Below, in pieces: positions 9,251 to 62,200 of a stretch of 64,000 bases of DNA; position 1 is the stretch's first letter; every line of letters starts with the position of its first letter. The position numbers and the translations under genes were made by a program. The stretch is from Pseudomonadales bacterium. GTDB lineage: Bacteria > Pseudomonadota > Gammaproteobacteria > Pseudomonadales > UBA7239. The notes under the pieces were generated by a model. It was not told where the DNA came from. It ran no database searches and saw only the letters and a list, made by a program, of their open reading frames with translations. The stretch is from the NCBI GenBank assembly GCA_046347205.1, contig JAXMGN010000001.1, positions 750,035-814,034 on the forward strand. The letters are read 5' to 3'.

Positions 9251-9260
9251 CAGGAAATGC

Positions 9261-9749: not shown

Positions 9750-9774
9750 ATAAAAACACTATTGTGATAGGCAT

Positions 9775-9805: not shown

Positions 9806-9821
9806 CATGCTGCACGCGGCG

Positions 9822-11078: not shown

Positions 11079-11286
11079 GCAGTTCTCCATTGATTTCATA
11101 GGGATTTATGGGGCGGGGGTGCGCCCGCAAAGGGCTGGGCATTGTACTCGCTAGTTGCGGTTTTTTGCGGTGCGCGCGCGATTTTCACTGTGTCGGGCAT
11201 TCAGGTAAGATAGCCACCCCGCCTGCATGGGCGTTGTTCTACTTCCTTTCTGACATCGGAGATCGGCCACCGCCGACAGGAACACA

Positions 11287-12870
11287 ATGAGCGCAATCGA
11301 AGATACCAAGGTTTACAGCGAACTGACCTCAGCCGCATTGATTGAACAAGCACTGCTGCGCCGTGAAGGCACACTGACTAACACGGGCGCGCTGTTGATT
11401 ACTACAGGCAAACGCTCTGGGCGTTCTCCTAGCGACCGTTTTGTGGTGCAAGAGCCATCAACGGCAGACGCTATCGATTGGGGCAATGTCAATCGCCCGT
11501 TCCCGCAAGATAAATTCAATGCACTGTGGGATCGCGTTGAAGCGTATCTCGCGCAAAAAGATCGTTTCTCGTCACAGTTGCATGTCGGCGCGCACGACGA
11601 ACATTACATTCCCGTTAAAGTGAACACAGAAACCGCGTGGCAGGCATTGTTTGCACGCAACATGTTTATCCGCCCTGAAAAATACAATCCAAAAGGCAAA
11701 GAAGAGTGGACGATTTTGAATGTCGCTTCTTTTCAGTGTGATCCCGCACGCGATGGCACCAATTCTGACGGCATCGTTTGCTTGAATTTCGCCAGCCGCC
11801 GCGTGCTGATTGCTGGTATGCGTTACGCCGGTGAAATGAAAAAAGCGATGTTCTCGGTACAAAACTTTTTGTTGCCAGAAAAAGATGTCATGCCTATGCA
11901 TTGCTCGGCGAATGTCGGTGAAGCGGGCGATGTGGCCTTGTTTTTTGGGTTGTCTGGCACAGGCAAAACGACTTTGTCTGCTGACCCTGCACGCTATTTG
12001 ATCGGCGACGACGAGCACGGTTGGGCAAAAGGCGCTGTGTTCAATATCGAAGGCGGCTGCTACGCAAAAACTGTCGATTTGTCACAAAAAAACGAGCCTG
12101 TGATTTGGGATGCGATTCGTTTTGGCAGCATCGTGGAAAATGTGCATGTCGATAGCAGTCGCCAAGCGCATTACAGCAATTTAGAAATTACTGACACCAT
12201 CGACGGCCAAACGCGCAATGTGGAAAACGGCCGCTGCTCTTATCCCTTAGAGCATGTAGCGAAGCGCACTGTGGCGAATGCTGCCGGCGAACCGAAAGTC
12301 GTGATTTTCTTAACGTGCGATGTGTCTGGCGTATTGCCACCCGTTTCTATTTTGTCGAAAGAAGCAGCGGCGTATCACTTTTTGTCGGGCTACACCGCGC
12401 GCGTCGGCTCTACCGAAGTGGGCGCAGCTCCTGGCATTCAACCGGCATTTTCTACCTGCTTTGGCGCACCGTTTATGCCGCGTCGTCCGATGGAATACGC
12501 GAAGTTGTTGATGAAGCGCGTGGAAGATTTCGGCTCGCAAGTTTATTTGGTGAACACCGGTTGGACTGGCGGTGCCGGTGGTCCTGGCGGCAAAGGTCAT
12601 CGCTTCCCGATTCCGGTTACGCGCGCCATCGTCAACGCCTGCTTGAGCGGTGAATTGCTGAAAGGTGACACCGAACAGTTGGAGCATTTGAATCTGACGG
12701 TGCCTAAAGCCATTAAAGATGTGGATAGCAAATACCTCAACCCGCGCAACGCGTGGGCAGACAAAGCCGAGTACGATGCGCAAGCGAAAAAACTCGCTGG
12801 TCTGTTCCAAGAAAACATCAAAAAGTTTGATGTTAGCGAGGCGGTACTCAACGCGGGACCCAAGGCGTAA
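11287..12870 (+). CDS. pckA: phosphoenolpyruvate carboxykinase (ATP)
   Basis: 527 aa. It has the kinase-1a loop [19 protein letters not shown] and NIEGGCYAK. Confidence 0.95.
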
Positions 12871-18539: not shown

Positions 18540-19472
18540 TCAGCTTTCGCTGTTTTCCGCTTTAGCTGCACGGCGCGCTTCGCGTTCGGCTTTTTTGCGA
18601 GCTTTTTCTTCTTCCTGCGCTTTCTGTTCAGCCAGGCGCGCTTTTTGGTCGTCGCTCATTGGGGTGAGCAGCAAGCCATCGCGGTGCGCTTGGATATACT
18701 TGCCGCATTTCTCGTCTTCACCCATCAGCGCGCGAATGGCGTAAATCATGGCGCGCATTTCTTTCACGCGTGGGTTAATCATGAAGCCTTCCATGCCATT
18801 CGCTGCGAGCATCGCTACATAAGTGCGGTTCATCAGTGCGCGGTGTGGCATGCCGAAGCTGACGTTAGACAAACCGCAGAAGGTGCGCACTTGTGGGAAT
18901 TCGGCTTTCATCATTTGCAATAAATCAAAACTGATGGGGCCCACGTTGTCGTCTGTGCCCAGCGGCAGAATGAGCGGATCAATCCACAAATTGTGATCGG
19001 GCACGCCTGCATCGCGCGATTTCGCCACCAATTCTTTGCAGATAGCAAAACGGCCTTTGGCGGTGTGGTTGATGCCGGTGTCATCCAACAACAGGGCCAC
19101 AATGCCAGTGTTGTATTTGGCAGCCAGCGGCAACAAGTTTTGCGCGCTGCCTTTTTTATTGTTGATGGAGCTGAGTACTGGGTACTGACCTTTCCAATCA
19201 ATCGTTTCCATTGCGTGTTTGAGCGCGGGTGGGTTGGAGCTATCCAACACCATCGGAATATTAGTGACAGCGCGCACGCTTTCAATCATCCACGGCAAGT
19301 CAATCAACTCGTCGCGGCCGGTCACTTGTGCATTGAGATCCAAATAATCGGAATCTGCTTCCACTTGCTCTAAAGCAACTTTTTGGATGTAAGCAGTGTC
19401 ATGCGCTTTTACCGCATCACAAATTGCAGGAATGGTGGCGTTCAATGATTCGCCGATAACAACAACGGCCAT
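18540..19472 (-). CDS. pterin-binding methyltransferase (methyl-corrinoid:tetrahydrofolate methyltransferase, MtgA/AcsE/MetH-pterin-domain-like)
   Basis: MAVVVIGESLNATI...YLDLNA...MVLDSSNP...ICGLSNVSFGMP-type blocks are characteristic of the pterin-binding (DHPS-like) TIM barrel. GGAGAA sits 5 nt before the ATG. It carries an unusual Lys/Glu/Ala-rich C-terminal tail. Confidence 0.8.
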   Translation of the reverse strand: MAVVVIGESLNATIPAICDAVKAHDTAYIQKVALEQVEADSDYLDLNAQVTGRDELIDLPWMIESVRAVTNIPMVLDSSNPPALKHAMETIDWKGQYPVLSSINNKKGSAQNLLPLAAKYNTGIVALLLDDTGINHTAKGRFAICKELVAKSRDAGVPDHNLWIDPLILPLGTDDNVGPISFDLLQMMKAEFPQVRTFCGLSNVSFGMPHRALMNRTYVAMLAANGMEGFMINPRVKEMRAMIYAIRALMGEDEKCGKYIQAHRDGLLLTPMSDDQKARLAEQKAQEEEKARKKAEREARRAAKAENSES

Positions 19473-19510
19473 ACGGTTCTCCGTTTTCTTAACAATAAAA
19501 AGTGATAATG

Positions 19511-19545
19511 AAAATAAAAAAGGCTTCTCTCAATAGAAAGAAGCC
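19511..19545 (-). terminator. intrinsic-terminator-like hairpin inside the operon (possible attenuator/processing site)
   Basis: The minus strand reads GGCTTCTttctattgagAGAAGCC followed by TTTTTTATTTT. It lies in the 89-nt gap between the MtmB-like and pterin-binding genes. Confidence 0.55.
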
Positions 19546-19561
19546 TCGCTGTGGTGTGAAC

Positions 19562-20950
19562 TTATTTCAGCGCTTTCAGACCCATGTCATACAGTTCTTG
19601 TTTGACACGGTTGTAGTCTTCCATCAACGCTGGTTTCGGTTCGCATTTTTCGCAATCGTAAGCATCTTTGAAGTGGCGCGGGCCAGCACCGCTGGCTTTG
19701 TGTTTCTCTGTTTCTTCGTTGCGTTTGGCGAAGATTTTGTTCATCAAAATGTCCGCTTCTTTGGGGTCTTGTACTTCCAAAGTCGCCTGCATCACTTCGC
19801 CAACCAAACGGGTTTCCAAACCGGAGTGACCGCCGATCCACACATAACCCATGCCGTTGATAGTGTTGGACACTGTCATCGCCTGCGCCTGCCAGATACC
19901 GGCGTAAGTGCGCCAGTACGGCTCCATGCCGGCACACACTGAAGCGATCGGTAGTTTGACGTGGCGTTCAAACGCGCGTGTGGCAGCAGCAACAGCCCAC
20001 TGCGTTTCTTGATCGGACCAAGTACCGTCCAAGTGGTTGGCGAACATTTGCGTCATGCCGCCGTGGCCATAAGACAACTGACCGAGGGCGTTGCACACAA
20101 TGCCGATGGCCGTCTCTGCGCCGTCACGACAAATGGCGCCGGTGAGCGATACGCAAGATGTCCACGGCTCAATACCGCGATCTTGGCAATATTTCGCCAT
20201 CATGAACGCGTTCCAGTCGATTTTCATTTCAGGAATGATGTGGATGCCGATTTGTGTGTTCCATGTTTTGCGGCGATCAGGATTGTGATCATCGATGCAC
20301 GCAAAAGAAGCGGCGGCAGACGATGCGGTGCACAACAAACCTTGGTGCATACCAGGGCGACCTTCTTCGCGACAGATGCGTTGAATCTGTGCGCATTCCC
20401 ACTGTGCGGCGTACATTTCAGACAATGTGCCCGCTTTGGCAGAGTGACCGTGGATCACTTCGATACCGCCGGTAATGCCCATCGCTTTATTGGTTTTTTC
20501 TTTTACGAAAGAACGGATGTACGGGTCGTGCCAATCTTCACCGATAACACCGCAAGGACCGCCGGCAAGAATTGGCAATTTTTTCTCGAACGCTTTACGG
20601 TAGGTGTATTCGATACGATCTGCGCCTTCACCAAACTTCGATACGCGCGGATTCGAGTTGTAGAACTCTGCCGTGTCGCGAATTTCCTGTTCGGTCAGCG
20701 CGATAACGCGAAACGTGTTGTTGTGATAAATGCCGCACTCTGCCAACAATTTAACCGCCGCGTTGAAAACGCCGTCAGCAATCTCGTCAGAAATGACAGT
20801 ACTGTCCGGCGTGTATTTCACACCGAACTCTTCAGCGGCTTTGCGCAAGGTGCGTGACCACTTGATGTCAAACTTGCTGGATTTTTCAAATACTTCGCCA
20901 GTTTCAGCGCGGTTTTGAAACTCCATAATATCCATTAATTTACCGGCCAT
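19562..20950 (-). CDS. MtmB (monomethylamine methyltransferase) family protein lacking pyrrolysine; substrate:corrinoid methyltransferase of unknown substrate
   Basis: Several blocks resemble my recollection of Methanosarcina MtmB: KLLAECGIY, EEGRPGMHQG (cf. AGRPGMGV-Pyl-G), GLETRLVGEVMQAT, and the C-terminal ...YNRVKQELYDMGL. The ORF is uninterrupted, with no in-frame TAG. The ATG at 20950 overlaps the corrinoid-protein stop (TAATG) and is preceded by GGAGAG, so the track start at 20992 is rejected. Confidence 0.75.
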   Translation of the reverse strand: MAGKLMDIMEFQNRAETGEVFEKSSKFDIKWSRTLRKAAEEFGVKYTPDSTVISDEIADGVFNAAVKLLAECGIYHNNTFRVIALTEQEIRDTAEFYNSNPRVSKFGEGADRIEYTYRKAFEKKLPILAGGPCGVIGEDWHDPYIRSFVKEKTNKAMGITGGIEVIHGHSAKAGTLSEMYAAQWECAQIQRICREEGRPGMHQGLLCTASSAAASFACIDDHNPDRRKTWNTQIGIHIIPEMKIDWNAFMMAKYCQDRGIEPWTSCVSLTGAICRDGAETAIGIVCNALGQLSYGHGGMTQMFANHLDGTWSDQETQWAVAAATRAFERHVKLPIASVCAGMEPYWRTYAGIWQAQAMTVSNTINGMGYVWIGGHSGLETRLVGEVMQATLEVQDPKEADILMNKIFAKRNEETEKHKASGAGPRHFKDAYDCEKCEPKPALMEDYNRVKQELYDMGLKALK

Positions 20951-21609
20951 TATGCTGCTCTCCCAAAGTGTGCTGCCATAATATTTTTGCAAAGTGTGAC
21001 GGCTTCCATCGCGTTAGGTGCCCAGCCATCAGCGCCCATCATGTTGGATTTTTCTTGATTGGTTTCTGCGCCGCCCATCACCACTTTGAATTGATCTTGC
21101 AGACCCATGTCGTGCACATAGTTCACAACATCGCGGCAGTTGGGGATGGTAGTGACCAAGAACGCCGACAAACCGATGATATTGGCTTTCTTTTCTTTGG
21201 CGGCGTTGATGAATGCCATGGAATCCACATTCACGCCCAGTTGATGCACTTCAAAACCAGCGAGTTCCAATTGCTTGGCGACCAGGCCGTAACCGATGTC
21301 GTGCAAATCGCCAGACACCGCGCCGATCACCACCACGCCTTGGCGCTCGCCATCAGACGATTTAGGCAAATGCGGGTTGATGATTTTGATGCAGTTTTCA
21401 GCGAGTTCACCGCCCACCATCAATTCTGCAAGAAAATATTCTTTGGCTTCAAACAACTGACCAATTTTTTCCAAACCTTTGACGACACCATCTTTTAGTA
21501 CAGACACCGGATCCAAACCTGCGTCCAGACATTCTTGTACCAACTCTGCCGCTTCGTCGTCGAGATCGGCAATCAGTTCGGCAATTTCTGCAATATCGTT
21601 TTGATCCAT
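20950..21609 (-). CDS. cobalamin-binding corrinoid protein (MtmC/MtgC-like)
   Basis: 219 aa. An N-terminal helical cap domain is followed by a Rossmann B12-binding domain. It carries the DxHxxG motif (GAVSGDLHDIGYGLV) and downstream S.L and GG motifs. Confidence 0.85.
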   Translation of the reverse strand: MDQNDIAEIAELIADLDDEAAELVQECLDAGLDPVSVLKDGVVKGLEKIGQLFEAKEYFLAELMVGGELAENCIKIINPHLPKSSDGERQGVVVIGAVSGDLHDIGYGLVAKQLELAGFEVHQLGVNVDSMAFINAAKEKKANIIGLSAFLVTTIPNCRDVVNYVHDMGLQDQFKVVMGGAETNQEKSNMMGADGWAPNAMEAVTLCKNIMAAHFGRAA

Positions 21610-21653
21610 GGTGCTCTCCTCAGTATGTAGTGCGTGGTAATTTTGTTGGTCGA

Positions 21654-23729
21654 TCAGGCTGCTGTGCGTTCGCGGCGGCGGCGGCGTGATTCGGTGTCCG
21701 GTGGCGCGGGCTGAATACCATAGCGCGCCAGCGACGGAAATGCATGTTTTTTGTGGGGCAACAGCGTGGCATCGACAAAGTGCGGGACAAAGCTCGTCTC
21801 GTTGGTCAGTTCCACATAGTGAATGCGGCGTGCGATGTGTTCGGCCTCTTCGCGTTTTGCGCGATTCATCAGTGCCATGCGCGCGCCATCACCGGCGGCA
21901 TTGCCCACCGAGTGTGTGTTTTCAAAGCCAACATCTTGGAACAAGCCAATCATCAGCGAGCGCCGCAGATCAATGTGCGAGCCGAAGGCACCGGCGAGGA
22001 TGACTTTTTCCGGCTTGTCGCGCCCCAGTTTATCGAGCAGCACTTGGATGCCGGAGTACACCGCGGCTTTTGCCAACTGCACATTGCGCACGTCGTCAAT
22101 GGTCATGGTGATGTCGCGACCGAGCGCGGTTTCATTTGCCCATGCAATCACAAATTCGGGATCGCCGTCTTCACCACGCCGCAAACGCGGCGTTTCTATT
22201 TCCATATTGAATTTGCCATTCGTGGCGAGAATACCTGCTTTGTATAACTCACCTACGGCGTCGATGATGCCAGAACCGCATAAACCAATTGCACCAATAT
22301 CAGTCGCTTCTAAACGCGTATTCCACGCTTCTTTACCGATAACCTTAAAACGCACGTCGTAATTTTTTTCCACGCGTACTTTTTCAATCGCACCGCGTGC
22401 GGCGCGCACGCCGTATTTGATATTGGCACCTTCCAATGCGGGCCCTGTGGGGCAAGACGTAGAATAAATTTTGTCGCGGTTGCCCACCAAAATTTCACCG
22501 TTGGTGCCGATGTCCACAATCGCTACCAAGTCATCCGAGTTGTAAGGTTCTAGCGCAATCGCCACAGCGGTATTATCCGCGCCGACAAATCCCGCTTGGT
22601 TGGCCAACAAATGCACATTGATAGATGGCAATACATTCGTTAAATGTAAATCGCGCGCTTTCACGTTTACAGAATGTGCGATGCGTGGATTGAACGGCGA
22701 CTTGCCGAGCGAATCAGGATCCAAGCCGAGAAAAATATGGTGCATACAGGTATTCGCCACCAGCACAATTTCACTGATGTCTTCCGCTGCATAACCAGCG
22801 GATTGCGTCACGCGATCCGCTAATTCGCTCAACGCACCGGTGACTGCTTTTTGCATGCGATCCAGTTTTTCTGGATTATCACTCGCAGCGATGCGGTTCA
22901 TCACGTCGTCGCCGCCAATGCGAATTTGCGGATTCATTAATGATTCTGTTGCCAGTGTTTCACCGGTGTGCATATCACACAAATACGAAGCCATGGTGGT
23001 GGTGCCGAGATCAACCGCCAAGCCCAACCACTGCTGTGTGGTGTCGCCATTTTCAATGCGAATAATTTCACCTGCTTGATTTATTTCAGGTGTCCACACG
23101 GTAGCGGTGAGCTGCATCACTTTTGCGCGCTGTGGTTTGGCGAGATCGCTCAATTGTTTCAACGCAGTGAAATCGATACGCGCATCAATACCGTGTTCAG
23201 CTTTGAGTGCATCGCGCAGGCGTTCGAAATCGCCGCGATGATCTGCCAGTGTTGGTGCTGGTACGGTAACAAAATATTTGCGCGTCACAGGATCGCGCAC
23301 CGCCACCGGTTTACCTGCCGCTTTGCGCACAATCGCTTCGCGCACGCGTGCTTCTTCGGGAACAAAAACCACCGCGTCGCCGAGTACGCGTGTTTGGCAA
23401 CTGAGCCGTTCGCTGGTTTTGTACTGGTGTTTGCGCGCCAGTTTTTGTTCGTGTTCGCTGGCCGGTGTGACGTGTGATTCACGCGAGCGCAGCCCGTGGC
23501 GTGTGGCGGCCGTGACCATATGCCCCATCGACAATTCATGGCCTTCGTCGTCAAAGGTACCGTCCAACACTTGGCATTTGCATTTGGCACAAGCGCCGGT
23601 GCCGCCACAAATGGATTCAATGCCCACGCCCAATTCACGCGCAGCGGTGAGCAGCGGCGTACCAGCGGCAAACTGCCCTTTCTGACCGGAGGGCAGAAAC
23701 AGCACATCGTATTTCTCAACGGCACTCAT
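21654..23729 (-). CDS. RACo-type reductive activator of corrinoid proteins ([2Fe-2S] ferredoxin domain + ASKHA ATPase)
   Basis: The N-terminus is a plant-type ferredoxin (SICGGTGACAKCKCQV). The long C-terminal part has actin/sugar-kinase-like phosphate motifs (LAVDLGTTT, VDIGTNGE). Size (691 aa) and architecture match RACo/COG3894 rather than the RamA 2x[4Fe-4S] type. Confidence 0.8.
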   Translation of the reverse strand: MSAVEKYDVLFLPSGQKGQFAAGTPLLTAARELGVGIESICGGTGACAKCKCQVLDGTFDDEGHELSMGHMVTAATRHGLRSRESHVTPASEHEQKLARKHQYKTSERLSCQTRVLGDAVVFVPEEARVREAIVRKAAGKPVAVRDPVTRKYFVTVPAPTLADHRGDFERLRDALKAEHGIDARIDFTALKQLSDLAKPQRAKVMQLTATVWTPEINQAGEIIRIENGDTTQQWLGLAVDLGTTTMASYLCDMHTGETLATESLMNPQIRIGGDDVMNRIAASDNPEKLDRMQKAVTGALSELADRVTQSAGYAAEDISEIVLVANTCMHHIFLGLDPDSLGKSPFNPRIAHSVNVKARDLHLTNVLPSINVHLLANQAGFVGADNTAVAIALEPYNSDDLVAIVDIGTNGEILVGNRDKIYSTSCPTGPALEGANIKYGVRAARGAIEKVRVEKNYDVRFKVIGKEAWNTRLEATDIGAIGLCGSGIIDAVGELYKAGILATNGKFNMEIETPRLRRGEDGDPEFVIAWANETALGRDITMTIDDVRNVQLAKAAVYSGIQVLLDKLGRDKPEKVILAGAFGSHIDLRRSLMIGLFQDVGFENTHSVGNAAGDGARMALMNRAKREEAEHIARRIHYVELTNETSFVPHFVDATLLPHKKHAFPSLARYGIQPAPPDTESRRRRRERTAA

Positions 23730-24364
23730 GCCATTTCTCCCGTGCCGAGCATATGGCGCGCCACACGCTTCAACTCTTGTTTGTAGGTGTCTAGCCGCGC
23801 CACGGTTTCGCTATTGGCCAGTAGGGGCGCATCCATAATGAAGAACATCGACGCGCCGGCGAGAATCGACCAGAACTGCACGGGGTCGATGGCGCGGAAG
23901 GCGTTACTGCGACGACCTTCATCCAAAGTGCCGATCAAACGGGCAAACATGGGGTCGACAAACTGCTGCACCTCAGGGCGCAAACCGCCCTCGGAGCCAG
24001 CCACTTCGCGCATAAAAAGGCGCATCAGGGTGGGGCGCGCGCCTGCGAAGTCCAACCACGCTTCCACGGCTGCTTCTACACGGGCGGGCAGGTCGAGCGA
24101 GGAATCCAGCGCCGCGCTGATGCGGTCATTGAGCTGGGCAAATAGCCTCTCCAATACTGCGTTGTACAGCGTTTCTTTGTCTTGAAAATGATAGATCACT
24201 GCCGTGCGCGTAATGCCTACGTCTTCGGCGATGTCTTCTAAACGCGTGGGGTAAAAGCCGGTGGCGGCAAAGCGCAGCTCCGCCGCGCCGAGTATCAACT
24301 CGCGTGTTTCGTCCGCCTTAAGGGTAGTGCGGCGGGGGAGTGGGGCTACAGAACTTACTGACAT
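23726..24364 (-). CDS. TetR/AcrR family transcriptional regulator
   Basis: The N-terminal HTH reads ILGAAELRFAATGFYPTRLEDIAEDVGITRTAVIYHFQDKETLY. Its stop overlaps the start of the activase gene by 4 nt. Confidence 0.85.
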   Translation of the reverse strand: MSVSSVAPLPRRTTLKADETRELILGAAELRFAATGFYPTRLEDIAEDVGITRTAVIYHFQDKETLYNAVLERLFAQLNDRISAALDSSLDLPARVEAAVEAWLDFAGARPTLMRLFMREVAGSEGGLRPEVQQFVDPMFARLIGTLDEGRRSNAFRAIDPVQFWSILAGASMFFIMDAPLLANSETVARLDTYKQELKRVARHMLGTGEMA

Positions 24365-35061: not shown

Positions 35062-35550
35062 ATGCCGTCTTTTGATGTGGTGTCTGAATTAGATAAACAC
35101 CAAGTGACCAATGCCATCGATCAATCCAATCGCGTGGTCGCCAACCGTTTTGATTTCAAAGGCGTGGACGCGCGCTTTGAGTATGCAGACAAAGCGGTGA
35201 CGATGCGCGCCGAAGCGGATATTCAAATCCAGCAAATGTTGGATATTTTGCGCCAGACACTCGTTAAAGCGGGTATTGATCTGGCTTGCATGCAAGAAAA
35301 AGATATAGAACATAGCGGTAAAACCGTGAAGCAAGTGGTGTTGCTGCGCGAAGGTATTGAGCAAGAGCTGGCGAAAAAAATCATCAAAATGATTAAAGAC
35401 AGCAAGTTGAAGGTACAGGCAGCCATTCAAGGTGAACAAGTGCGCGTGACAGGAAAAAAACGTGACGACCTGCAGGAAGTGATAGCCTTCTTGCGCAGCG
35501 AAAAAGAAACCATTGCCATGCCGCTGCAATTTAATAATTTTCGCGATTGA
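35062..35550 (+). CDS. yajQ: YajQ family nucleotide (c-di-GMP)-binding protein
   Basis: [27 protein letters not shown] is the canonical YajQ start. The ATG at 35062 is preceded by TGAGG. Confidence 0.9.
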
Positions 35551-35556
35551 TGCATC

Positions 35557-36984
35557 ATGAATCCATCAATTCCGCTTTGTGTAGACATGGATGGCACGCT
35601 GCTAAAAACAGACACATTGCTGGAGTTGTTGTTTGGTGTATTAAAGCAAAAACCTTGGGTTTTGTTGCTTTTGCCCTTGTGGTGTTTGCGCGGCAAAGTG
35701 TTTCTCAAGCGCACGCTCTCGGCGCGTTACTCCTTAAATGTAGCGCTGCTGCCCATCAATGTCGACTTTGTCGATTTTCTGCATGCAGAAAAAACTAATG
35801 GTCGAGAGCTGTATTTAGCGACCGGCGCGTATTTGGATTTGGCGCAGCAAGTTGCGGCACATTACGGAGTTTTTTCTGGCGTATTGGCGACAAGCGACAA
35901 AAATTTAACCGGTCGTACGAAAGCAGAGGCGATGGTCGCCCAGTTTGGCGAAAAGGGTTTTGATTACGCCGGCAACAGTACGGTTGATAGCCCCTGCTGG
36001 GAGCACGCGAGGCAGTGTTATTTGGTAAACGCCAGCCCTGCTGTTGTTAAAAAAATGGTGGCTCTATTTTCTTTTGAAAAAATGTTTGATTTGCGTAGCA
36101 AGATTACGCTAGCTATTTTGTTGCGTGCATTGCGTATTCACCAATGGGCAAAAAATATTTTGGTATTCATTCCCTTGTTGGCATCACACAAGGCTTTAGA
36201 ATTTTCATTACTACAGAACACACTGCTGGCTTTTCTGGCGTTTGGTTGCAGTGCCTCGCTCTCTTATGTCATCAACGATATTGGCGATTTAGACGCAGAT
36301 CGACAGCATCGCAGCAAACACAAACGCCCCTTTGCTTGCGGTGAGCTTTCCATTCCCAATGGTTTGACCCTGGTGTTATTGCTGGCAGCCTGCGCCATTT
36401 TTCTTGTATCTTTTTTGCCGCTACGTTTTGCTAGCGCACTGCTGGCGTATTTGGTCATTACCAATTTGTACAGCATGCGTTTGAAAAACTTTCCTGTTTT
36501 AGATGTCGCTATTCTTGCCGGCCTGTATACGTTGCGCGTGGTGGCAGGTGGCTTGGCTACTGGCGTAGAAGTTTCATTTTGGTTATTGGCTTTTTCTGGT
36601 TTTATTTTCTTTAGCCTAGCGATAGTAAAGAGAGTGTCCGAATTGCTGACGATTGAGGTATCCGGCAATCAACCTGTCCAATGCCGTGGCTATTGGACCA
36701 GCGATATTCCGGTGCTGACCGGATTAGGCACTGCCAGTGCAATGATGGCGGTGTTGGTATTGGCTCTGTATATCAACAGCCCGAATGTGGTGGCGCTGTA
36801 CAGCAGCCCGCGCTATTTGTGGGTGCTGTGCCCAGTGATGGCGCTGTGGCTGGGGCGCGTGTGGCTGATTACCGGGCGCGGCGACATGCACGATGATCCC
36901 GTGGTGTTTGCCTTGCGTGATCGCATGAGTTGGCTGCTGTTTTTGTTGGCGGGCTCATTCATCGTGGTGGGAGCCAATATCTGA
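35557..36984 (+). CDS. HAD-like hydrolase domain fused to UbiA-family polyprenyl-phosphate phosphoribosyltransferase (Rv3806c-like)
   Basis: The N-terminal ~170 aa carry HAD motif I (CVDMDGTLLKTD). The C-terminal part is polytopic, with the UbiA motif YVINDIGDLDADRQHRSKHKRPFACGE and a second Asp-rich region. Confidence 0.8.
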   Translation: MNPSIPLCVDMDGTLLKTDTLLELLFGVLKQKPWVLLLLPLWCLRGKVFLKRTLSARYSLNVALLPINVDFVDFLHAEKTNGRELYLATGAYLDLAQQVAAHYGVFSGVLATSDKNLTGRTKAEAMVAQFGEKGFDYAGNSTVDSPCWEHARQCYLVNASPAVVKKMVALFSFEKMFDLRSKITLAILLRALRIHQWAKNILVFIPLLASHKALEFSLLQNTLLAFLAFGCSASLSYVINDIGDLDADRQHRSKHKRPFACGELSIPNGLTLVLLLAACAIFLVSFLPLRFASALLAYLVITNLYSMRLKNFPVLDVAILAGLYTLRVVAGGLATGVEVSFWLLAFSGFIFFSLAIVKRVSELLTIEVSGNQPVQCRGYWTSDIPVLTGLGTASAMMAVLVLALYINSPNVVALYSSPRYLWVLCPVMALWLGRVWLITGRGDMHDDPVVFALRDRMSWLLFLLAGSFIVVGANI

Positions 36985-38282
36985 TGGGTGTGCGTCATTC
37001 ATGGGGGCGTTATTTTCATTACACGCATGATGAGCGCACGATTTCTTGGCGCAACGAGGCATTACCAAAAACAGAAAATAAACTATTGCCACACGGATTA
37101 GGGCGCAGTTATGGCGACAGTTGCTTGAATAACGGCGGCACGCTGCTGCACACGTCTGCGCTAAATCATTGGATGGATTTCGATAAATCAACGGGCTTAT
37201 TGTGTTGTGAAGCAGGGGTATCGCTGGCAGATATTTTGGAACTCTGCGTGCCGCACGGTTGGTTTTTACCTGTGACACCCGGCACCAAATTTGTGACGCT
37301 CGGCGGTGCGGTAGCCAATGATGTGCACGGAAAAAATCATGTGGTGGACGGTACATTTGGCCGACACGTCACCGCGCTTGAGTTGTTGCGCAGTGATGGC
37401 GAGCGACTGCTGTGTACCTCAACAAAAAACGCGGATTTATTTTGCGCAACAATCGGTGGTTTGGGTCTGACAGGTTTGATTACCTGGGTCGAGCTGCAAC
37501 TGATCCCCGTCAAAAACGCTTTTGTGAATGACGATTCGTTTCAATGCGACAATCTCGATCACTGCTTGCAACATTTTGCACAGTCGCGCGAGACACACCG
37601 CTATCGCGTGGCGTGGTTGGATTGTTTGGCCACTGGCAGTGCATTGGGGCGCGGCATTTTTTCGCGCGCCAATCACTGCGAGAGCGACACTTTGCCCGCC
37701 GTGCATCAGCAGGGAAAAAAGTTATCTGTGCCGCTGACGTTTCCGCCGCATGTGCTCAATCGCTATAGCGTCAGTGCATTCAATGCCCTGTATTACCGCA
37801 AACTGCGCGCCAGAAAAAAATCGTCGCGCTTAAGCTACGACAAATTTTTTTATCCACTGGACAACATCCATCACTGGAATCGCATTTACGGACCGCACGG
37901 TTTTTTGCAATACCAGTGCGTAGTGACGCGTGATGTGCGCGACGCTTTGCAGGCGCTGTTAAAACGCATCGCCCAATCGGGGCAGGCCTCTTTTCTCAGC
38001 GTATTAAAAGAGTTTGGCGATTTGTCTTCGCCAGGCTTGCTGTCTTTTCCACGCAGCGGTTACACCTTGGCGTTGGACTTCCCTAACCTCGGTGACAGCA
38101 CACTGAATCTGTTAAATGATTTGGATGCCATCGTGCGCGAAGCCGAGGGTGCGATTTATCCGGCGAAAGATGCGCGTATGTCGCCCGCTATGTTTCGCGC
38201 CAGTTTTCCTCAAGTCGAGCAATTTATTCCCTATATGGACCCACAATTTTCTTCCAGTTTTTGGCGCCGCGTTTATTCGTAA
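36984..38282 (+). CDS. FAD-dependent oxidase, DprE1-like (polyprenylphosphoryl-beta-D-ribose 2'-oxidase)
   Basis: GLGRSYGDS, GTKFVTLGGAVANDVHGKNH, LFCATIGGLGLTG, FYPLDNIHHWNRIYGPHGFLQYQCVV and LSFPRSGYTLALDFP parallel DprE1 blocks. The ATG at 36984 overlaps the upstream stop (TGATG). Confidence 0.8.
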   Translation: MGVRHSWGRYFHYTHDERTISWRNEALPKTENKLLPHGLGRSYGDSCLNNGGTLLHTSALNHWMDFDKSTGLLCCEAGVSLADILELCVPHGWFLPVTPGTKFVTLGGAVANDVHGKNHVVDGTFGRHVTALELLRSDGERLLCTSTKNADLFCATIGGLGLTGLITWVELQLIPVKNAFVNDDSFQCDNLDHCLQHFAQSRETHRYRVAWLDCLATGSALGRGIFSRANHCESDTLPAVHQQGKKLSVPLTFPPHVLNRYSVSAFNALYYRKLRARKKSSRLSYDKFFYPLDNIHHWNRIYGPHGFLQYQCVVTRDVRDALQALLKRIAQSGQASFLSVLKEFGDLSSPGLLSFPRSGYTLALDFPNLGDSTLNLLNDLDAIVREAEGAIYPAKDARMSPAMFRASFPQVEQFIPYMDPQFSSSFWRRVYS

Positions 38283-38304
38283 TCACAAGAAAAAGAGGAT
38301 GGCT

Positions 38305-39042
38305 ATGAACATTGTTATTTTTGGTGCGACATCAGCCATTGCTCAGGCTTGGGCGCGTTTGCGCGCAGCCCAGCGGGACAGTTTTTATTTGCTGGGGCGT
38401 GACAACGCAAGACTAGAAGTCGTTAAACAGGATTTATTGGCGCGCGGCGCGCAGCAGGTGTATTGCCATGTAATAGATCTTGCGCAACCACAAGATTACA
38501 ACGCCTTGACCGCGCAAATTTATGCGCAGAGCGCATCGGTAGATATTGCTCTGTTTGCGCAGGGCAGTATGCCGGAGCAGCGTGAATTGGAAAAAAATGT
38601 CGCGGCCCTGCCAGTCATGTTTACCTTGAATGCACTGAGTTATTTGCAACCAGCCAGTGTGATGGCCGAGCGCATGGCGCAAACCAAAGCTGGCAGCGTG
38701 GTGTTGATTTCCTCACCGGCGGGTGATCGCGGCAGACAGAGCAATTATTTTTACGGCGCGAGCAAGGCGGCAGTGACCGTGTTTGCCGCGGGTTTGCGCA
38801 ATCGCATGGCAAAACATGCCGTGCAAGTGCTCACCATCAAACCAGGTTTTGTGGATACGCCGATGACGGCGGGTATGGATAAATCAGGTCCGCTGTGGGC
38901 GCAGCCTGAACAAATTGCCGTGTGTATCGAAAACGGCATTCAGAAAAAGAAGAATGCGATTTATGCGCCGTGGTTTTGGCAGTACATCATGCTGATTATT
39001 CGCCACATCCCTGAATCTATTTTCAAACGCTTGTTGCTGTAG
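38305..39042 (+). CDS. short-chain dehydrogenase/reductase, DprE2-like
   Basis: It has the Rossmann motif IFGATSAIAQA and the YGASKAA catalytic motif (YxxxK). The ATG at 38305 lies 6 nt after AAGAGG. The track start at 38116 would overlap the DprE1-like gene by about 170 nt. Confidence 0.75.
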   Translation: MNIVIFGATSAIAQAWARLRAAQRDSFYLLGRDNARLEVVKQDLLARGAQQVYCHVIDLAQPQDYNALTAQIYAQSASVDIALFAQGSMPEQRELEKNVAALPVMFTLNALSYLQPASVMAERMAQTKAGSVVLISSPAGDRGRQSNYFYGASKAAVTVFAAGLRNRMAKHAVQVLTIKPGFVDTPMTAGMDKSGPLWAQPEQIAVCIENGIQKKKNAIYAPWFWQYIMLIIRHIPESIFKRLLL

Positions 39043-43363: not shown

Positions 43364-43452
43364 CATCACTTTGCTGACTTATTGACAATAATTTCACACG
43401 GGCTTTGTTGAAATGCCGCGCCGTCATTTCAACCCTTTCAGGAAAGTTTCCC

Positions 43453-44331
43453 GTGCCAATTCCCGCTGTGCTGCGCCAAAAAAATAGCCGTATTGTTTTA
43501 GGGGTGTTGGCTGCCGCTTTGCTACTGACGTATGGTGTTCTCGCTTGGTTGCGCTTTGCACCGGTGAAAGCAGCAGAAGGTTGGCAGTACAGCGAAGTGC
43601 AGAGCAATTTGGATCGTGTGGTTTCGCTGGCGCGGTTACCTGACAACAGTATTGTCGCCACTCTCTCTGCAAAGCAGCATCCGGGCGATACGGGGCGCGG
43701 GCAGTTAGTCAAATTGGATATAGCTGCCGGCAAATACACCGTGCTGGCAGATGGTCTGTATAAACCGGATGGTTTATTGCCGTATCAGGGCGGCATTATT
43801 TTGACACAAGAGTACTCAGATCAGCCGGTGTTGTGGTGGAAAGATGGCAAGGTGCAACCGCTGATGCTGTTGGCCAAGCCGGAATCTATTGCTGAAACCG
43901 CCGATGGAAAATGGCTGACGATAGAAGACTCGACCAACGGTCGCCTACTGGAAATTGACCCACACAATAACTACAGCGAAAAAGTATTAGCAGGGGGTTT
44001 TGCTGCGGGTGAAGGTGTGTGCGTGGATAAAAATCAACGCATTTTTATTGTAGACAACAAGAATCCTAATTTAATGGAATATCGCGATGGAAACATCGTG
44101 CAAATTCCCGCCAAGATGAGAGGGGCTGGATTTCTGCGCTGTACTGACAAAGGCATTTGGATTACAGAAGATGTGACCAACGATGGTCATTTGTGGTTTT
44201 ATGATTACAAAACTTTTCAGGTTGTTGCTTCACATTTGCATGCGCCACAGTCTGTACTAGAAGATGGGGATAATGCCATTTTTGTGGCTGAACAAGGACG
44301 ATCACGATTGTTGCGTTTTGTGCGACAGTAA
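43453..44331 (+). CDS. membrane-anchored beta-propeller-like protein (SMP-30/NHL-like), hypothetical
   Basis: It has one N-terminal TM helix (IVLGVLAAALLLTYGVLAWL). Repeated short strand motifs follow (..DG.L....GG.I.T., .IFIVDN., IWITED, IFVAEQG). The GTG at 43453 lies 7 nt after AGGAAA, and its stop overlaps the next start (TAATG). Confidence 0.5.
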   Translation: MPIPAVLRQKNSRIVLGVLAAALLLTYGVLAWLRFAPVKAAEGWQYSEVQSNLDRVVSLARLPDNSIVATLSAKQHPGDTGRGQLVKLDIAAGKYTVLADGLYKPDGLLPYQGGIILTQEYSDQPVLWWKDGKVQPLMLLAKPESIAETADGKWLTIEDSTNGRLLEIDPHNNYSEKVLAGGFAAGEGVCVDKNQRIFIVDNKNPNLMEYRDGNIVQIPAKMRGAGFLRCTDKGIWITEDVTNDGHLWFYDYKTFQVVASHLHAPQSVLEDGDNAIFVAEQGRSRLLRFVRQ

Positions 44332-46409
44332 TGACTTTATCAGGACAAACTATGACTACTGAACCCGCTTTGGCGCGCACATATCGACAAACCGTTTTAG
44401 GCCATGCCAGTTTTATGCTGTTGGCAATGCTGTCTCTAATGGTGCTATTTTCTGTGGCGCGTTTGGTTTTGTATTGGCATAACGCGGAGCTTGCCAATAC
44501 ATTATCACGCGACGCTGTATTCGTCAGTTTTGCTATCGGCTTGCGTTTTGACTTGATGGTGGTCTGTGCATTCTGTGTTCCATTATTGCTGGGTTTTTTA
44601 TTTCCTGCGTCAGTGGTTTTGCGAAAAATCTTGATTGTTTGGTTGTCTATTGCGTCATCAGTATCTATTTTCTTTTGTATCACTGAATTGGATTTTTACC
44701 GTGAGTTTCACCAGCGGCTTAACAGTTTAGTCTTTGAATATATTCGCCAAGACCCCAAAACCGTGATTAGCATGCTGTGGAATGGCTTTCCGCTGTTTCG
44801 TTATTTGTTGCTGTGGTTGCTGTGTTCATGGCTGATGTATTGCCTGTATGGAATATTGGATCGTTTGGCTTGTGCGATAGAGCAACGGTTTTTTGTCGCG
44901 CGCAAAGCAACGTCGATGGTGTGGCGTGTGATTAGCTGCGTATTGGTTTTTTTGCTACTGGTGCTGGGCGCGCGCGGCACTTTGCGCCAAGGACCTCCAC
45001 TGCGCTGGGGAGATGCTTTTCACGGGCAAAATTTGTTTGCCAATCATCTCGGACTCAATGGGATTTTTACTCTTTATAAGGCAACACGCACAGGCAATGG
45101 CAAGACCAATAAAAATTTCTGGCTGAATGCGATGCCTTTGGAGAAAGCAACGGCCATTACGCAGAACCTCTTGTTCACATCACAGGATAAGCCATCAACG
45201 GATAAGAACCTATCATTACTGCGCACACACCAAGGCGACACAAGTGTCGCGCAACGCTATGAGAAAAAGCCCAATGTCGTTGTTATTTTGATGGAAAGTT
45301 TCTCGGGTGTGTACACAGGCGCATTAGGCGATCCGTTAGGCATCACGCCATCTTTTGATCACCTTGCGCAACAAGGTCTGTTGTTCACGCGCTTTTTCTC
45401 CAATGGTACGCATACCCACCAAGGTATGTTTGCCACCTTTGCCTGCTTCCCCAATCTCCCTGGCTATGAATATTTAATGCAGGAACCGGAAGGAACGCAC
45501 AAATTCTCCGGTTTGCCTCTGCTGTTGCATCGCGAGGGCTATCAAAACATTTATGTATACAACGGCTCATTTTCTTGGGACAACCAAGAGGGATTTTTTA
45601 GAAACCAGGACGTTACTAAATTTGTTGGGCGCGATGATTTTGTGAATCCGGTGTTTATCAACCCAACGTGGGGCGTGTCGGATCAAGACATGTTTGATCG
45701 CTCGGTTGTTGAGTTAAATAAATTATCTAGTGATAGCGATAAACCGTTTTTTGCCATGCTGCAAACACTGTCTAACCACACGCCGTATGCCATGCCGAGC
45801 CCACTGCCGGTGCAGTCTGTGACAGATCAGGGTTTGTTAAACGAACATCTCACTGCAATGCGTTATGCCGATTGGGCGCTGGGTCAATTTTTTGCAAAAG
45901 TAGAAAAAGAGCCTTGGTACAACAATACGATTTTTGTGTTGGTGGGAGATCACGGTTTCGGCACAAACAATCAAGTTACGGATATCGATCTGCTGCGCTT
46001 TCGTGTACCACTGTTAATTATTGGTCCAAAAGTGCGCGAAATTTACGGCGCAACCACTGATCGTGTAGCTACGCAAAATGATATTGCGCCGACAATCATG
46101 GGTTTGCTGGGCGATTCATTTACGCACCAGTGCTGGGGGCGCGACGTGTTGTCGGTGAAAGATGCGGGCTTTGCGTTAATCAAACCATCGGGCAATGATG
46201 AAATTGTCGGTTTCTTGCGCGATGACCGCATTGTGGTGAAGCGTCCGAATGCGCCAGCGACGTTATACCGTTATGACGCTGCACAAAATGCGCATGCCGA
46301 ACCAATAAATGATCCGGCAGAAACGGCGCAAATGGCGACCACGTTGTCTGCGTTTGTTGAGCGTGCCACGCGCAGCCTGCTTGACAATACCGCAGGCGCG
46401 GGGCAGTAG
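44331..46409 (+). CDS. LTA-synthase/sulfatase-family membrane phosphotransferase
   Basis: The N-terminal region is polytopic. The periplasmic alkaline-phosphatase-superfamily domain has NVVVILMESFSG, FSNGTHTHQG and VLVGDHG. Confidence 0.75.
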   Translation: MTLSGQTMTTEPALARTYRQTVLGHASFMLLAMLSLMVLFSVARLVLYWHNAELANTLSRDAVFVSFAIGLRFDLMVVCAFCVPLLLGFLFPASVVLRKILIVWLSIASSVSIFFCITELDFYREFHQRLNSLVFEYIRQDPKTVISMLWNGFPLFRYLLLWLLCSWLMYCLYGILDRLACAIEQRFFVARKATSMVWRVISCVLVFLLLVLGARGTLRQGPPLRWGDAFHGQNLFANHLGLNGIFTLYKATRTGNGKTNKNFWLNAMPLEKATAITQNLLFTSQDKPSTDKNLSLLRTHQGDTSVAQRYEKKPNVVVILMESFSGVYTGALGDPLGITPSFDHLAQQGLLFTRFFSNGTHTHQGMFATFACFPNLPGYEYLMQEPEGTHKFSGLPLLLHREGYQNIYVYNGSFSWDNQEGFFRNQDVTKFVGRDDFVNPVFINPTWGVSDQDMFDRSVVELNKLSSDSDKPFFAMLQTLSNHTPYAMPSPLPVQSVTDQGLLNEHLTAMRYADWALGQFFAKVEKEPWYNNTIFVLVGDHGFGTNNQVTDIDLLRFRVPLLIIGPKVREIYGATTDRVATQNDIAPTIMGLLGDSFTHQCWGRDVLSVKDAGFALIKPSGNDEIVGFLRDDRIVVKRPNAPATLYRYDAAQNAHAEPINDPAETAQMATTLSAFVERATRSLLDNTAGAGQ

Positions 46410-48419: not shown

Positions 48420-48655
48420 ACCAGCCGGATGAAGCCCTCCGCTCATCGTAGCTAACGGGAATTGGATTCCCTGGTGTTGCAGGTCGGTCTCCGGGCTCAC
48501 AGGTGGTTGAGATCAACCGCGTCAGCGCCTTCCCATGCATGCACAGTGGCGTATTGCTGACGTTTACCTGTTTACCGTTGCGGGGGCAGCGTTGGGATGA
48601 TCGCAAGCGATGGCACCAACTTCCCATTTCACCAGCGACCAGAAAGATCGCCGGA
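48420..48655 (-). promoter_or_regulatory. cobalamin (AdoCbl) riboswitch in the btuB leader
   Basis: The minus strand reads GGTGAAATGGGAAGTTGGTGCCA ... GCTGCCCCCGCAACGGTAA ... CCACTG ... GGGAAGG ... B12 box GAGCCCGGAGACCGACCTGC (48500-48479). Downstream, CCTCAA ... TTGAGG can sequester the SD (TGAGGT) 6 nt before the ATG at 48348. Confidence 0.85.
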
Positions 48656-48693
48656 ACCTGTAACAGCGCGCGCACTGTAGACGGGTTGGGCGC

Positions 48694-61959: not shown

Positions 61960-62200
61960 ATGCCAAAACCGTGTGCGGCAGGCCGGTCTCCGGGCTCATG
62001 AGTGCGTAGCATCCTGTACGCTGACGGGCACCTTCCCATGTCGCGCCAGTGGCGCAGTACACAGTGGTTATTGCCGGTCTCTACTCATTTACCGTTGCGG
62101 GGGCAGCGCTGGAATTGTTGCTCGTAGAGCAAACGCACCAGCTTCCCGTTTCACCCTCGGAGCAGAAGCTCGTCGGGCACCTGAAGCAGGGCTGCACTGT
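61960..62200 (-). promoter_or_regulatory. cobalamin (AdoCbl) riboswitch in the leader of the cbtB-cbtA-cbi operon
   Basis: The minus strand reads GGGTGAAACGGGAAGCTGGTGCG ... CAGCGCTGCCCCCGCAACGGTAA ... CCACTG ... GGGAAGG ... B12 box GAGCCCGGAGACCGGCCTGC (62000-61977). It has the same architecture as the btuB element. Confidence 0.85.

Follow-up and report, generated by a model that had tools for sequence, protein, structure and literature searches.

Predicted genes for a lipid-linked arabinofuranose donor, without a linked flippase or transferase gene, in an activated-sludge gammaproteobacterium

The 64-kb stretch of DNA analysed here (the window), from an uncultured activated-sludge gammaproteobacterium, contains at positions 35557-39042 of the forward strand three intact, co-directional and tightly packed genes that probably encode a cytoplasmic-face pathway to a lipid-linked pentofuranose donor, most probably undecaprenyl-phosphate-beta-D-arabinofuranose. 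The best characterised relative of each of the three proteins is its Mycobacterium tuberculosis (Mtb) counterpart, far ahead of the rest of the respective superfamily, and catalytic residues are kept for all four predicted activities (a fusion in the first gene accounts for two of them). It is this specific homology to DPPRS, DprE1 and DprE2 that makes polyprenyl-phosphate-linked D-arabinofuranose the most likely product. The three enzymes remain under purifying selection. We also find that this lineage has lost an MprF-type flippase-like gene, which is retained immediately upstream of the synthase in its closest relatives, and this is a new observation.

The gene cluster and its three enzymes

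Table 1. Position and assignment of the features discussed (window coordinates)
Feature	Coordinates	Strand	Basis
yajQ (DUF520, 162 aa)	35062..35550	+	Pfam PF04461, 3e-61
Gene 1, bifunctional PRP-PPPRS (475 aa), predicted	35557..36984	+	Pfam, NCBIfam, PDB, Foldseek
Gene 2, DprE1-like FAD-dependent polyprenyl-phospho-ribose 2'-oxidase (432 aa), predicted	36984..38282	+	NCBIfam, PDB, residue census
Codon for Ala363 (position of Mtb DprE1 Cys387)	38070..38072	+	HMMER alignment and census
Gene 3, DprE2-like short-chain dehydrogenase, 2'-keto reductase (245 aa), predicted	38305..39042	+	NCBIfam, PDB, motifs

The first-pass annotation, made from the letters of the sequence, had reported three linked DPPRS-, DprE1- and DprE2-like genes with yajQ upstream and fatty-acid genes downstream, and open reading frames, HMM and PDB matches and gene annotation all agree with this description. 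The junctions are very short (6 nt between yajQ and gene 1, -1 nt between genes 1 and 2, where the ATG of gene 2 shares one nucleotide with the TGA of gene 1, and 22 nt between genes 2 and 3). The three module genes probably form one translationally coupled transcription unit, in which yajQ is likely included. Scans for promoters and terminators gave counts at shuffle expectation, and Rfam returned no RNA element near the module. The downstream genes, for a MaoC-type dehydratase and an acyl-CoA dehydrogenase, are on the opposite strand and convergent with the module; an aldo-keto reductase gene also belongs to these metabolic flanks. A recent horizontal acquisition of the module as an island is disfavoured both by its GC content (0.50-0.52, where 2-kb bins across the window range over 0.45-0.58) and by a synteny that is kept down to relatives of 62% identity.

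Gene 1 was described in the first-pass annotation as a UbiA-family gene with the motif NDIGDLDADRQH..KRPFACGE. The motif is indeed found, at residues 240-263, but an N-terminal HAD phosphatase domain had been overlooked. In Pfam, UbiA is matched at 1e-21 and the HAD domain at 2.8e-7, exceeding its gathering score, and the NCBIfam model NF006088/PRK08238 covers residues 3-472 with 590 bits (cut-off 351), the runners-up being DPPRS models. By these criteria gene 1 is a PRP-PPPRS-type fusion, as is ORF15 of Citrobacter youngae, with two predicted activities: a phosphoribose-5-phosphatase in the HAD domain (residues ~1-180; D10, D12 and T14 of the DMDGT motif, T89, K122, N140, D144) and a polyprenyl-phosphate phosphoribosyltransferase in the UbiA-fold domain (residues ~186-475; N240, D241, D244, D248, R249, R359, E362). 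The catalytic residues of both domains are invariant or almost so among 13 diverse homologues, with D10, D12, T14, T89, K122 and D144 invariant in all of them, and the NDxxDxxxD motif and R..E loop that are functionally relevant in ORF15 and DPPRS are present. The best PDB match of the membrane domain is Mtb DPPRS (8J8J, 1.2e-23), and in the AlphaFold2 model (pLDDT 90) this domain superposes on 8J8J in Foldseek with a TM-score of 0.82. For the HAD domain the PDB profile search gave no sequence-level match; the fold search alone matched it, to SerB/KdsC-type HAD phosphatases. Gene 1 stays below the NCBI equivalog cut-off for actinobacterial DPPRS (136 versus 207 bits).

The oxidase encoded by gene 2 groups with DprE1 and not with the alditol or GlcD-type oxidases; a grouping with the latter had been specified in advance as speaking against the arabinose proposal. 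It scores 384 bits with the DprE1 model and 41 bits with the next FAD-oxidase model, and a PDB search returns DprE1 chains at 1.6e-77 (residues 34-417), followed by the next FAD oxidase at 1e-8. The same 384 bits fall short of the NCBIfam equivalog cut-off of 500, so that by sequence gene 2 is to be placed in a homologous DprE1 subfamily and is not an equivalog by the NCBI criterion. Identity to Mtb DprE1 is about 37% in a MAFFT alignment. The active-site residues Y60, H132, K134, Q334, Q336 and K418 of the Mtb enzyme are found here as Y43, H115, K117, Q309, Q311 and K395; among 47 homologues, the equivalents of Y60, H132, K134 and K418 are invariant and those of Q334 and Q336 are kept in 46.

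The replacement by Ala of the DprE1 Cys targeted by benzothiazinones, as initially proposed, was correct: in the HMMER alignment GWNICVDFP of Mtb pairs with GYTLALDFP, Cys387 becoming Ala363 and Asn385 becoming Thr. It is, however, not specific to this locus, since Ala occupies the position in 44 of 47 non-actinobacterial homologues (the window's gene 2 counted). Mtb Cys387, to which benzothiazinones bind covalently, matters as a drug target and is not required for catalysis, and the family-wide Ala leads us to predict that covalent DprE1 inhibitors would not act on these enzymes.

For gene 3, the open reading frame extends over 38116-39042, but translation starts within it, at the ATG of position 38305, which is preceded by GAGG; gene calls in metagenomes give 245 or 247 aa. 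PRK07102, an unnamed family, is the best NCBIfam model (279 bits, cut-off 267) and DprE2 the second, at 156 bits, below its equivalog cut-off of 250; at 1e-15 or better, the PDB matches are DprE2 only. The SDR motifs are in place, with the glycine-rich GATSAIA (G7-A13), S136/S137, Y150 and K154.

The predicted pathway and known systems

In the pathway that we propose, the UbiA-fold synthase of gene 1 would first convert PRPP to lipid-phosphate-ribose, and the fused HAD domain would then take off the 5-phosphate, a removal step that the fusion builds into the synthase. The DprE1-like flavoenzyme would oxidise the C2' hydroxyl of the ribose to a ketone, which the DprE2-like reductase would reduce with inversion of configuration to yield the arabinofuranose lipid. 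A protein encoded elsewhere would have to flip this lipid to the periplasmic side, and an unlinked GT-C-type transferase would finally pass the sugar to some surface glycan or protein. Specific homology and the conservation of catalytic residues are our grounds for inferring the first four steps; flipping and transfer we purely infer, because the window encodes nothing for either. A literature search found no biochemically characterised member of this exact DprE1/E2 subfamily.

This type of pathway is already known, with Gram-negative examples on record since 2011 and 2024, and the current picture of it is unchanged by this locus. In Azorhizobium caulinodans, noeC and the genes downstream of it (a DPPRS-type gene and oxidoreductases) are linked to the addition of D-arabinose to Nod factors; the context of nod genes and the known acceptor set that system apart from the window's module. 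The decaprenyl-phospho-arabinose pathway of Mtb consists of the DPPRS Rv3806c, the phosphatase Rv3807c, DprE1, DprE2, Rv3789 and the Emb/Aft GT-Cs. The four predicted chemical steps are identical there, and the Mtb enzymes are the best solved-structure match of all three proteins. The label "mycobacterial-type" given initially is imprecise, however: gene 1 is an ORF15-type fusion and not Rv3806c plus Rv3807c (a separate PAP2-type phosphatase), and the scores of all three proteins lie under the equivalog cut-offs. The membrane domain of gene 1 has 24-26% identity to 8J8K/8J8J in the Foldseek structural alignment, Cys387 is Ala, and linked arabinosyltransferases are absent from the window. The carrier would presumably be C55 and not C50 as in Mtb (a deduction from PMC11127046).

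The Citrobacter youngae O1/O2 system, a three-component one for pentofuranose side chains, comprises the PRP-PPPRS ORF15, the transporter ORF14, the GT-C ORF12 (GT136) and the epimerase ORF13 (Kelly et al., PNAS 2024, PMC11127046). Both the PPPRS and the phosphatase activity of ORF15 have been demonstrated in vitro (PMC11127046), and gene 1 has the same two-domain build, an N-terminal HAD phosphatase joined to a UbiA-fold synthase. When the two are compared by residue numbers, and not by direct alignment, D18, N247, D248, D251, D255, R366 and E369 of ORF15 answer to D10, N240, D241, D244, D248, R359 and E362 of gene 1 with a constant offset of 7-8 residues. Both pathways would lead from PRPP to lipid-phosphate-ribose, with epimerisation preceding export. 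They differ in that C. youngae uses a single SDR, ORF13 (C3', xylose), whereas the window has a DprE1/E2-type pair (C2', arabinose, as predicted), and in that the window's module is outside any O-antigen cluster and has no linked transporter or GT-C. A third Gram-negative case is the pilin D-arabinofuranose of Pseudomonas aeruginosa group IV (Pa5196/PA7), which involves a PPPRS, DprE1/E2 homologues and TfpW (bioRxiv 10.1101/2020.04.19.049825; cited in PMC11127046). Here too gammaproteobacterial homologues of DPPRS, DprE1 and DprE2 make a lipid-linked D-arabinofuranose donor, but the synthase has no fused HAD domain and the phosphatase is separate (PMC11127046), and the genes are beside the pilin gene and tfpW, whereas neither pilin nor transferase is near the module of the window.

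Membrane partners in the window and in related loci

We counted hydrophobic segments in every open reading frame and used 159 membrane proteins encoded at 80 related loci as tblastn queries against the window. The whole 64 kb contains no polytopic GT-C-like protein, small flippase-like reading frame or glycosyltransferase gene, and the module is free of flippase, GT-C and acceptor genes for 35 kb on its upstream side and 25 kb on its downstream side; near it there is no reading frame of at least 70 aa with at least three predicted membrane helices. The first-pass annotation had noted that no GT-C, pilin or polysaccharide gene is adjacent, and this extends to the entire window, the part of the genome within view. 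The tblastn search returned no transporter or GT-C candidate from the window, just acyl-CoA dehydrogenase and weak sulfatase-domain matches. The polytopic proteins of the window are a PHO4 transporter, the synthase, a membrane-anchored sulfatase-domain protein, CobD and a 5-TM protein in the cobalamin cluster. One of these, the 692-aa membrane and sulfatase protein encoded at 44331-46409, was considered for the role of the missing transferase and rejected: it has a strong PF00884 match and an LtaS/OpgB-like architecture, it is missing from this position in the relative of 77% identity, and its linkage to the module does not recur.

Such modules had been presented as known from only a few cases outside the Corynebacteriales, a view that is now outdated, since more than 7,700 database matches are found for the HAD-UbiA fusion family, which occurs in at least 576 species genomes from many phyla. 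A DprE1-like gene adjoins the fusion synthase in 56 of 80 loci, and the order synthase, DprE1-like, DprE2-like recurs across phyla whatever the flanks. The neighbours at related loci include GtrA, EamA-type and PF03706 flippase-like proteins, large polytopic membrane proteins and polysaccharide genes (the transporters named by Kelly et al. are MATE or SMR-type only, PMC11127046), and in Azospirillum a natural GT87(GT-C)+HAD+UbiA fusion joins the synthase with a transferase. Unlinked partners are nevertheless common, since of the 37 related loci flanked on each side by 8 kb or more of sequence, 9 have no large polytopic or flippase-like membrane protein within 8 kb.

The relatives of 62-78% identity are labelled as "Pseudomonadales bacterium" MAGs. 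In the closest syntenic ones (L090, L001 and L091; 62-66% identity) the neighbourhood is that of the window, with the aldo-keto reductase gene, yajQ and then the cassette, except that a PF03706/TIGR00374 MprF-type flippase-like gene separates yajQ from the synthase; this gene is absent from the window and from its 77% relative. No description of the resulting four-gene cassette (PF03706 flippase-like, PRP-PPPRS, DprE1-like, DprE2-like), whose synthase, oxidase and reductase are orthologous to the three of the window, was found in a literature search. Two further candidates from these loci were discarded: yajQ as a conserved partner of the module, which is confined to the window's lineage and its syntenic relatives, and a 963-aa protein adjoining the L090 module as a GT-C, which contains CxxCH haem motifs and just one hydrophobic segment, at its N-terminus.

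Alternative readings and wider significance

It could be argued that generic UbiA, FAD-oxidase and SDR genes were grouped by chance and serve quinone, alditol or, with their acyl-CoA neighbours, fatty-acid metabolism, as the metabolic flanks (MaoC dehydratases, acyl-CoA dehydrogenase, aldo-keto reductase) and the JGI annotation of gene 1 (4-hydroxybenzoate polyprenyltransferase) might suggest. We give this almost no credence: the DPPRS, DprE1 and DprE2 models outscore those of UbiA, GlcD, alditol-oxidase and FabG type by 40 to 300 bits, the fatty-acid genes run towards the module from the opposite strand, and model scores, PDB matches and a gene order kept across phyla irrespective of flanks effectively refute it. 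It is a more serious objection, though in our opinion still an unlikely one, that the product is something else (a retained 2'-keto sugar or a different epimer), or that the ribosylated or arabinosylated lipid is an end-product membrane glycolipid and not a donor. The sub-threshold scores with the DprE1 and DprE2 equivalog models and the replacement of Mtb Asn385 and Cys387 are compatible with this, as is the membership of the close relatives' linked flippase-like protein in a phospholipid-flippase family; moreover, an NAD-dependent epimerase is present in 25 related loci and an amine-oxidase-like flavoprotein in 12, so that the chemistry of the family is not uniform. The window, however, has the minimal pair of oxidase and reductase, which is the 2'-epimerising arrangement of mycobacteria, the DprE1 catalytic residues are conserved as described above, and DprE1/E2 homologues are reported specifically from arabinofuranose-glycan loci (Kelly et al., PMC11127046).

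If arabinofuranose lipid is indeed made, the loss of the flippase-like gene and the 64 kb without flippase or GT-C might mean that the sugar now reaches no acceptor and that the genes are a stranded remnant heading for decay. We consider this quite improbable. All reading frames are intact, with their catalytic residues conserved, and dN/dS against the 77% relative is 0.09-0.12 for each of the three genes, resembling the housekeeping neighbours, although neither of the two lineages compared has the flippase-like gene. In addition, an identical module protein is found on 23 contigs from independent metagenome samples, and the 9 loci mentioned above likewise have no membrane partner nearby. A tentative proposal, to which we attach a low probability, is that this lineage uses the arabinofuranose lipid through an unrecognised export or transfer route or on a new class of acceptor, the cassette of its relatives being an undescribed and usually transferase-unlinked variant of pentofuranose donor systems; housekeeping components of the envelope, such as the LPS core or periplasmic glucans, would then be candidate acceptors, and expression may possibly be tied to yajQ.

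To our knowledge, D-arabinofuranose on Gram-negative surfaces is documented for a mere handful of glycans. The genes of the pathway are very common in environmental bacteria, which suggests that many arabinofuranose-bearing glycans are still to be found. With this locus an activated-sludge gammaproteobacterium joins them, and a glycan of this kind may be part of its floc or surface chemistry. The locus also shows that selection can maintain donor-synthesis genes that have neither a flippase nor a transferase gene linked to them.

Assignment of the three genes

The module at 35557-39042, which the first-pass annotation read as a mycobacterial-type set for polyprenyl-phospho-arabinofuranose synthesis, is genuine and intact; NCBIfam and PDB searches find in it homologues of the DPPRS, DprE1 and DprE2 types. 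The whole of the first protein, a HAD-UbiA fusion (hereafter the synthase), matches NF006088/PRK08238 at 590 bits (cut-off 351), followed by three decaprenyl-phosphate phosphoribosyltransferase models at 108-136 bits, and no ordinary UbiA, heme O synthase or GGGP synthase model reaches 50 bits. The second protein scores 384 bits with the NCBIfam DprE1 model against 41 for the next flavoprotein family, and retrieves the DprE1 chains of the PDB at 1.6e-77 across nearly its full length (next oxidase 1e-8); it does not therefore group with alditol or GlcD-type oxidases, a grouping that the first-pass annotation had named as one that would speak against the module. The third protein passes the cut-off of an unnamed SDR family (PRK07102, 279 bits against 267), DprE2 being the second-best NCBIfam model, and DprE2 is its sole PDB match at 1e-15 or better; the glycine-rich N-terminus and the Ser/Tyr/Lys triad are present.

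In an alignment of the synthase with 12 homologues (47-77% identity), the HAD motifs D10, D12, T14 (DMDGT), T89, K122 and D144, the transferase motifs N240, D241, D244, D248 and R249, as well as K358, R359 and E362, are invariant or nearly so. In ORF15 of Citrobacter youngae, an enzyme whose type is established biochemically, the nucleophile D18 and residues N247, D248, D251, D255, R366 and E369 were probed by mutagenesis (Kelly et al., PNAS 2024, PMC11127046); by residue number, ours lie at a constant offset of 7-8 residues from these, and the two proteins are thus collinear. The AlphaFold2 model (pLDDT 90) superposes best on the DPPRS of M. tuberculosis (8J8J, TM-score 0.82 on target), and its N-terminal domain on SerB and KdsC-type HAD phosphatases. 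When 47 homologues of the oxidase, from the window and the fetched related loci, are aligned with M. tuberculosis DprE1, Y60, H132, K134 and K418 show no variation, and 46 of the 47 keep Q334 and Q336. The proposed replacement of the cysteine targeted by benzothiazinones holds as well: GWNICVDFP aligns with GYTLALDFP, Cys387 corresponding to Ala363, from which resistance to benzothiazinones is predicted. This alanine is not peculiar to our locus, because 44 of 47 non-actinobacterial DprE1-like homologues have it.

Positions of the features discussed (window coordinates unless a related locus is named)
Feature	Position	Strand	Basis or remark
Module, three co-directional ORFs	35557-39042	+	ORF calling
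Gene 1, two-domain synthase, 475 aa	35557-36984	+	Pfam HAD (residues 10-128), UbiA (218-451)
Gene 2, DprE1-like, 432 aa	36984-38282	+	NCBIfam DprE1 model, PDB DprE1 chains
Gene 3, DprE2-like SDR, 245 aa	likely start ATG 38305	+	GAGG six bases upstream of ATG
Flippase-like gene in related loci	L090 9043-9987; L091 9060-10004; L001 about 9048-9986		directly upstream of synthase
GT87-HAD-UbiA protein, 968 aa, then EamA-family transporter	L088 (Azospirillum lipoferum 4B) 7507-10413		plasmid AZO_p3 (NC_016623.1)
Secreted protein, 519 aa	12965-14524	+	RCC1-like and thrombospondin type 3 calcium-binding repeats
Lnb_N/DUF7840 protein, 637 aa	14538-16451	-	adjoins the preceding gene
MtmB-family methyltransferase homologue, B12-binding corrinoid protein, RACo-type reductive activase, pterin-binding methyltransferase, TetR regulator	18540-24364	-
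308-aa and 692-aa proteins	43405-46409	+	308-aa: weak NHL/strictosidine-synthase-like propeller matches
Two cobalamin riboswitches	48465-48676; 61964-62199	-	105 and 94 bits

Surroundings in the window and in related loci

The synthase gene starts 6 nt after the yajQ stop, shares one base with gene 2 (TGATG), and a gap of 22 nt precedes gene 3, 20 nt past which a convergent MaoC-type gene ends; scans for consensus promoters and terminators gave chance-level results. The exact synthase protein occurs on 23 metagenome contigs, up to 0.2-1 Mb in length and with activated sludge among their sources, and its neighbours there are the same. Upstream lie, in order, panB, a deoxynucleoside-kinase-family gene (dNK), folK, pcnB, two YkuD genes, a PhoU-like gene, a PHO4 transporter, cmoB, cmoA, an aldo-keto reductase and yajQ; downstream, two MaoC-type dehydratases, an acyl-CoA dehydrogenase, a TRL lipoprotein, a PPi-type phosphofructokinase and a PHA-granule regulator. 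By Pfam, the rest of the window codes for central metabolism and cobalamin synthesis and holds a corrinoid methyltransferase cluster; no glycosyltransferase or polysaccharide gene is seen anywhere in the 64 kb. Apart from the synthase, the only polytopic membrane proteins there are the PHO4 transporter, CobD, a protein with a sulfatase domain and, inside the cobalamin cluster, a 5-TM protein, and 159 membrane proteins from related loci have no meaningful homologue in the window. The earlier statement that no transferase is adjacent is confirmed, and applies to the whole window.

The first-pass annotation was outdated in describing such modules as known from only a few cases, given their abundance in databases and the survey of Kelly et al. 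(PMC11127046): the pathway type is already described and very common. More than 7,700 entries of a large protein collection match the fusion protein significantly, and relatives occur in at least 576 species-representative genomes, from Pseudomonadota, Acidobacteriota, Verrucomicrobiota, Nitrospirota, KSB1 and other groups. Kelly et al. (PMC11127046) outline a "three-component" scheme, widespread in their account, in which auxiliary epimerases accompany a synthase, a transporter and a GT-C, report DprE1/E2 homologues in arabinofuranose-glycan loci of Stenotrophomonas and Rathayibacter, and list further candidates in Burkholderia, Rhizobium, Xanthomonas, E. coli, Bacillus and a phage. Among our 80 fetched loci, 56 have a DprE1-like gene with the synthase, almost always immediately downstream and followed by the DprE2-like gene; in the remainder the synthase stands by itself and would presumably provide ribofuranose.

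Beside the module, other lineages carry GtrA-family or EamA/SMR-like small transporters, NAD-dependent epimerases, polytopic proteins of 500-1100 residues without Pfam matches, and O-antigen ligase-like, Wzx-like or exosortase/XrtA exopolysaccharide genes. The Azospirillum protein, in which GT87 (GT-C), HAD and UbiA are naturally fused, ties a transferase to the donor synthase, and together with these neighbours it fits a model in which the module makes a donor for periplasmic glycosylation. A crude proxy is given by the neighbours within 8 kb in those 37 loci that contain the oxidase and extend 8 kb or more to either side of the module: a large polytopic protein is present in 25 of them, and neither such a protein nor a flippase-like one in 9, so that unlinked partners are not rare.

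A trio of NAD-dependent epimerase (~320 aa), amine-oxidase-like flavoprotein (~430 aa) and GtrA recurs with the module in several lineages (loci L014, L033, L056, L072, L080, L068), where the lipid-linked pentose may thus be modified further; the trio is absent from the window.

A flippase-like gene, the proposed pathway and its alternatives

The closest relatives sharing the chromosomal neighbourhood, L090 (66% identity), L001 (62%) and L091 (62%), have yajQ and the synthase separated by one extra gene. Its product, of 314 residues and about 8 helices (Pfam PF03706, LPG_synthase_TM; NCBIfam TIGR00374, "flippase-like domain"), is distantly akin to the MprF and glucosaminyl-PG flippases. Of the 54 oxidase-containing loci whose upstream sequence is long enough, 17 (these three and 14 others) have this MprF-type gene less than 300 nt ahead of the synthase, and none of the oxidase-lacking loci has it upstream; our literature search found no paper describing a four-gene cassette of PF03706/TIGR00374, HAD-UbiA synthase and DprE1/E2-like genes. 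Neither the window nor its 77% relative L085 has the gene, their yajQ-synthase gaps being only 6 and 5 nt, respectively, and no homologue lies elsewhere in the window; its absence is a lineage-specific loss.

We consider it probable that the module feeds a five-step arabinofuranose-donor pathway. The UbiA domain would join PRPP to polyprenyl phosphate, giving lipid-P-ribose-5-P, which the HAD domain would dephosphorylate; the DprE1-like protein would then oxidise C2', and the DprE2-like protein would carry out a stereo-inverting reduction to lipid-P-beta-D-arabinofuranose. Specific homology and conserved residues argue for these four steps. Export and transfer to an acceptor, which we infer, would fall to unlinked proteins, and the carrier is presumably undecaprenyl phosphate, as argued for Gram-negatives.

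That the enzymes make some other product, or a glycolipid that is itself the end product, seems to us unlikely. The loss of the flippase-like gene might also suggest a decaying remnant; between the window and L085, both of which lack that gene, dN/dS is 0.10, 0.12 and 0.09 for genes 1, 2 and 3, comparable with the neighbours (0.015-0.09), so that the three enzymes are still under purifying selection despite this loss, and we regard decay as quite improbable. A chance grouping of generic, unrelated enzymes is hardly credible when ordinary UbiA and flavoprotein families score so far below the specific models. We prefer the arabinofuranose-donor pathway.

Other observations

The synthase gene has a dS of 1.6 against its L085 counterpart (10001-11431), values for yajQ and the DprE1- and DprE2-like genes being 0.33-0.37 and the YajQ protein 100% identical; divergence starts exactly past the stop codon of yajQ, a pattern suggestive of a recombination mosaic or of replacement of the synthase allele. 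A second high-dS block lies at about 26-32 kb (pcnB 1.7, PHO4 1.2).

The 308-aa and 692-aa genes are an insertion relative to L085, where the PHA-granule regulator gene directly precedes a TonB-dependent receptor gene; the larger protein has 5 N-terminal membrane helices and an LtaS/OpgB-like sulfatase domain. In the window, one cobalamin riboswitch lies upstream of a TonB-dependent receptor gene, whose product is probably BtuB-like, and the other upstream of the cobalamin biosynthesis cluster (~49-62 kb). Finally, the corrinoid methyltransferase cluster of this gammaproteobacterium looks like a system for the corrinoid-dependent demethylation of methyl-amines or quaternary amines.
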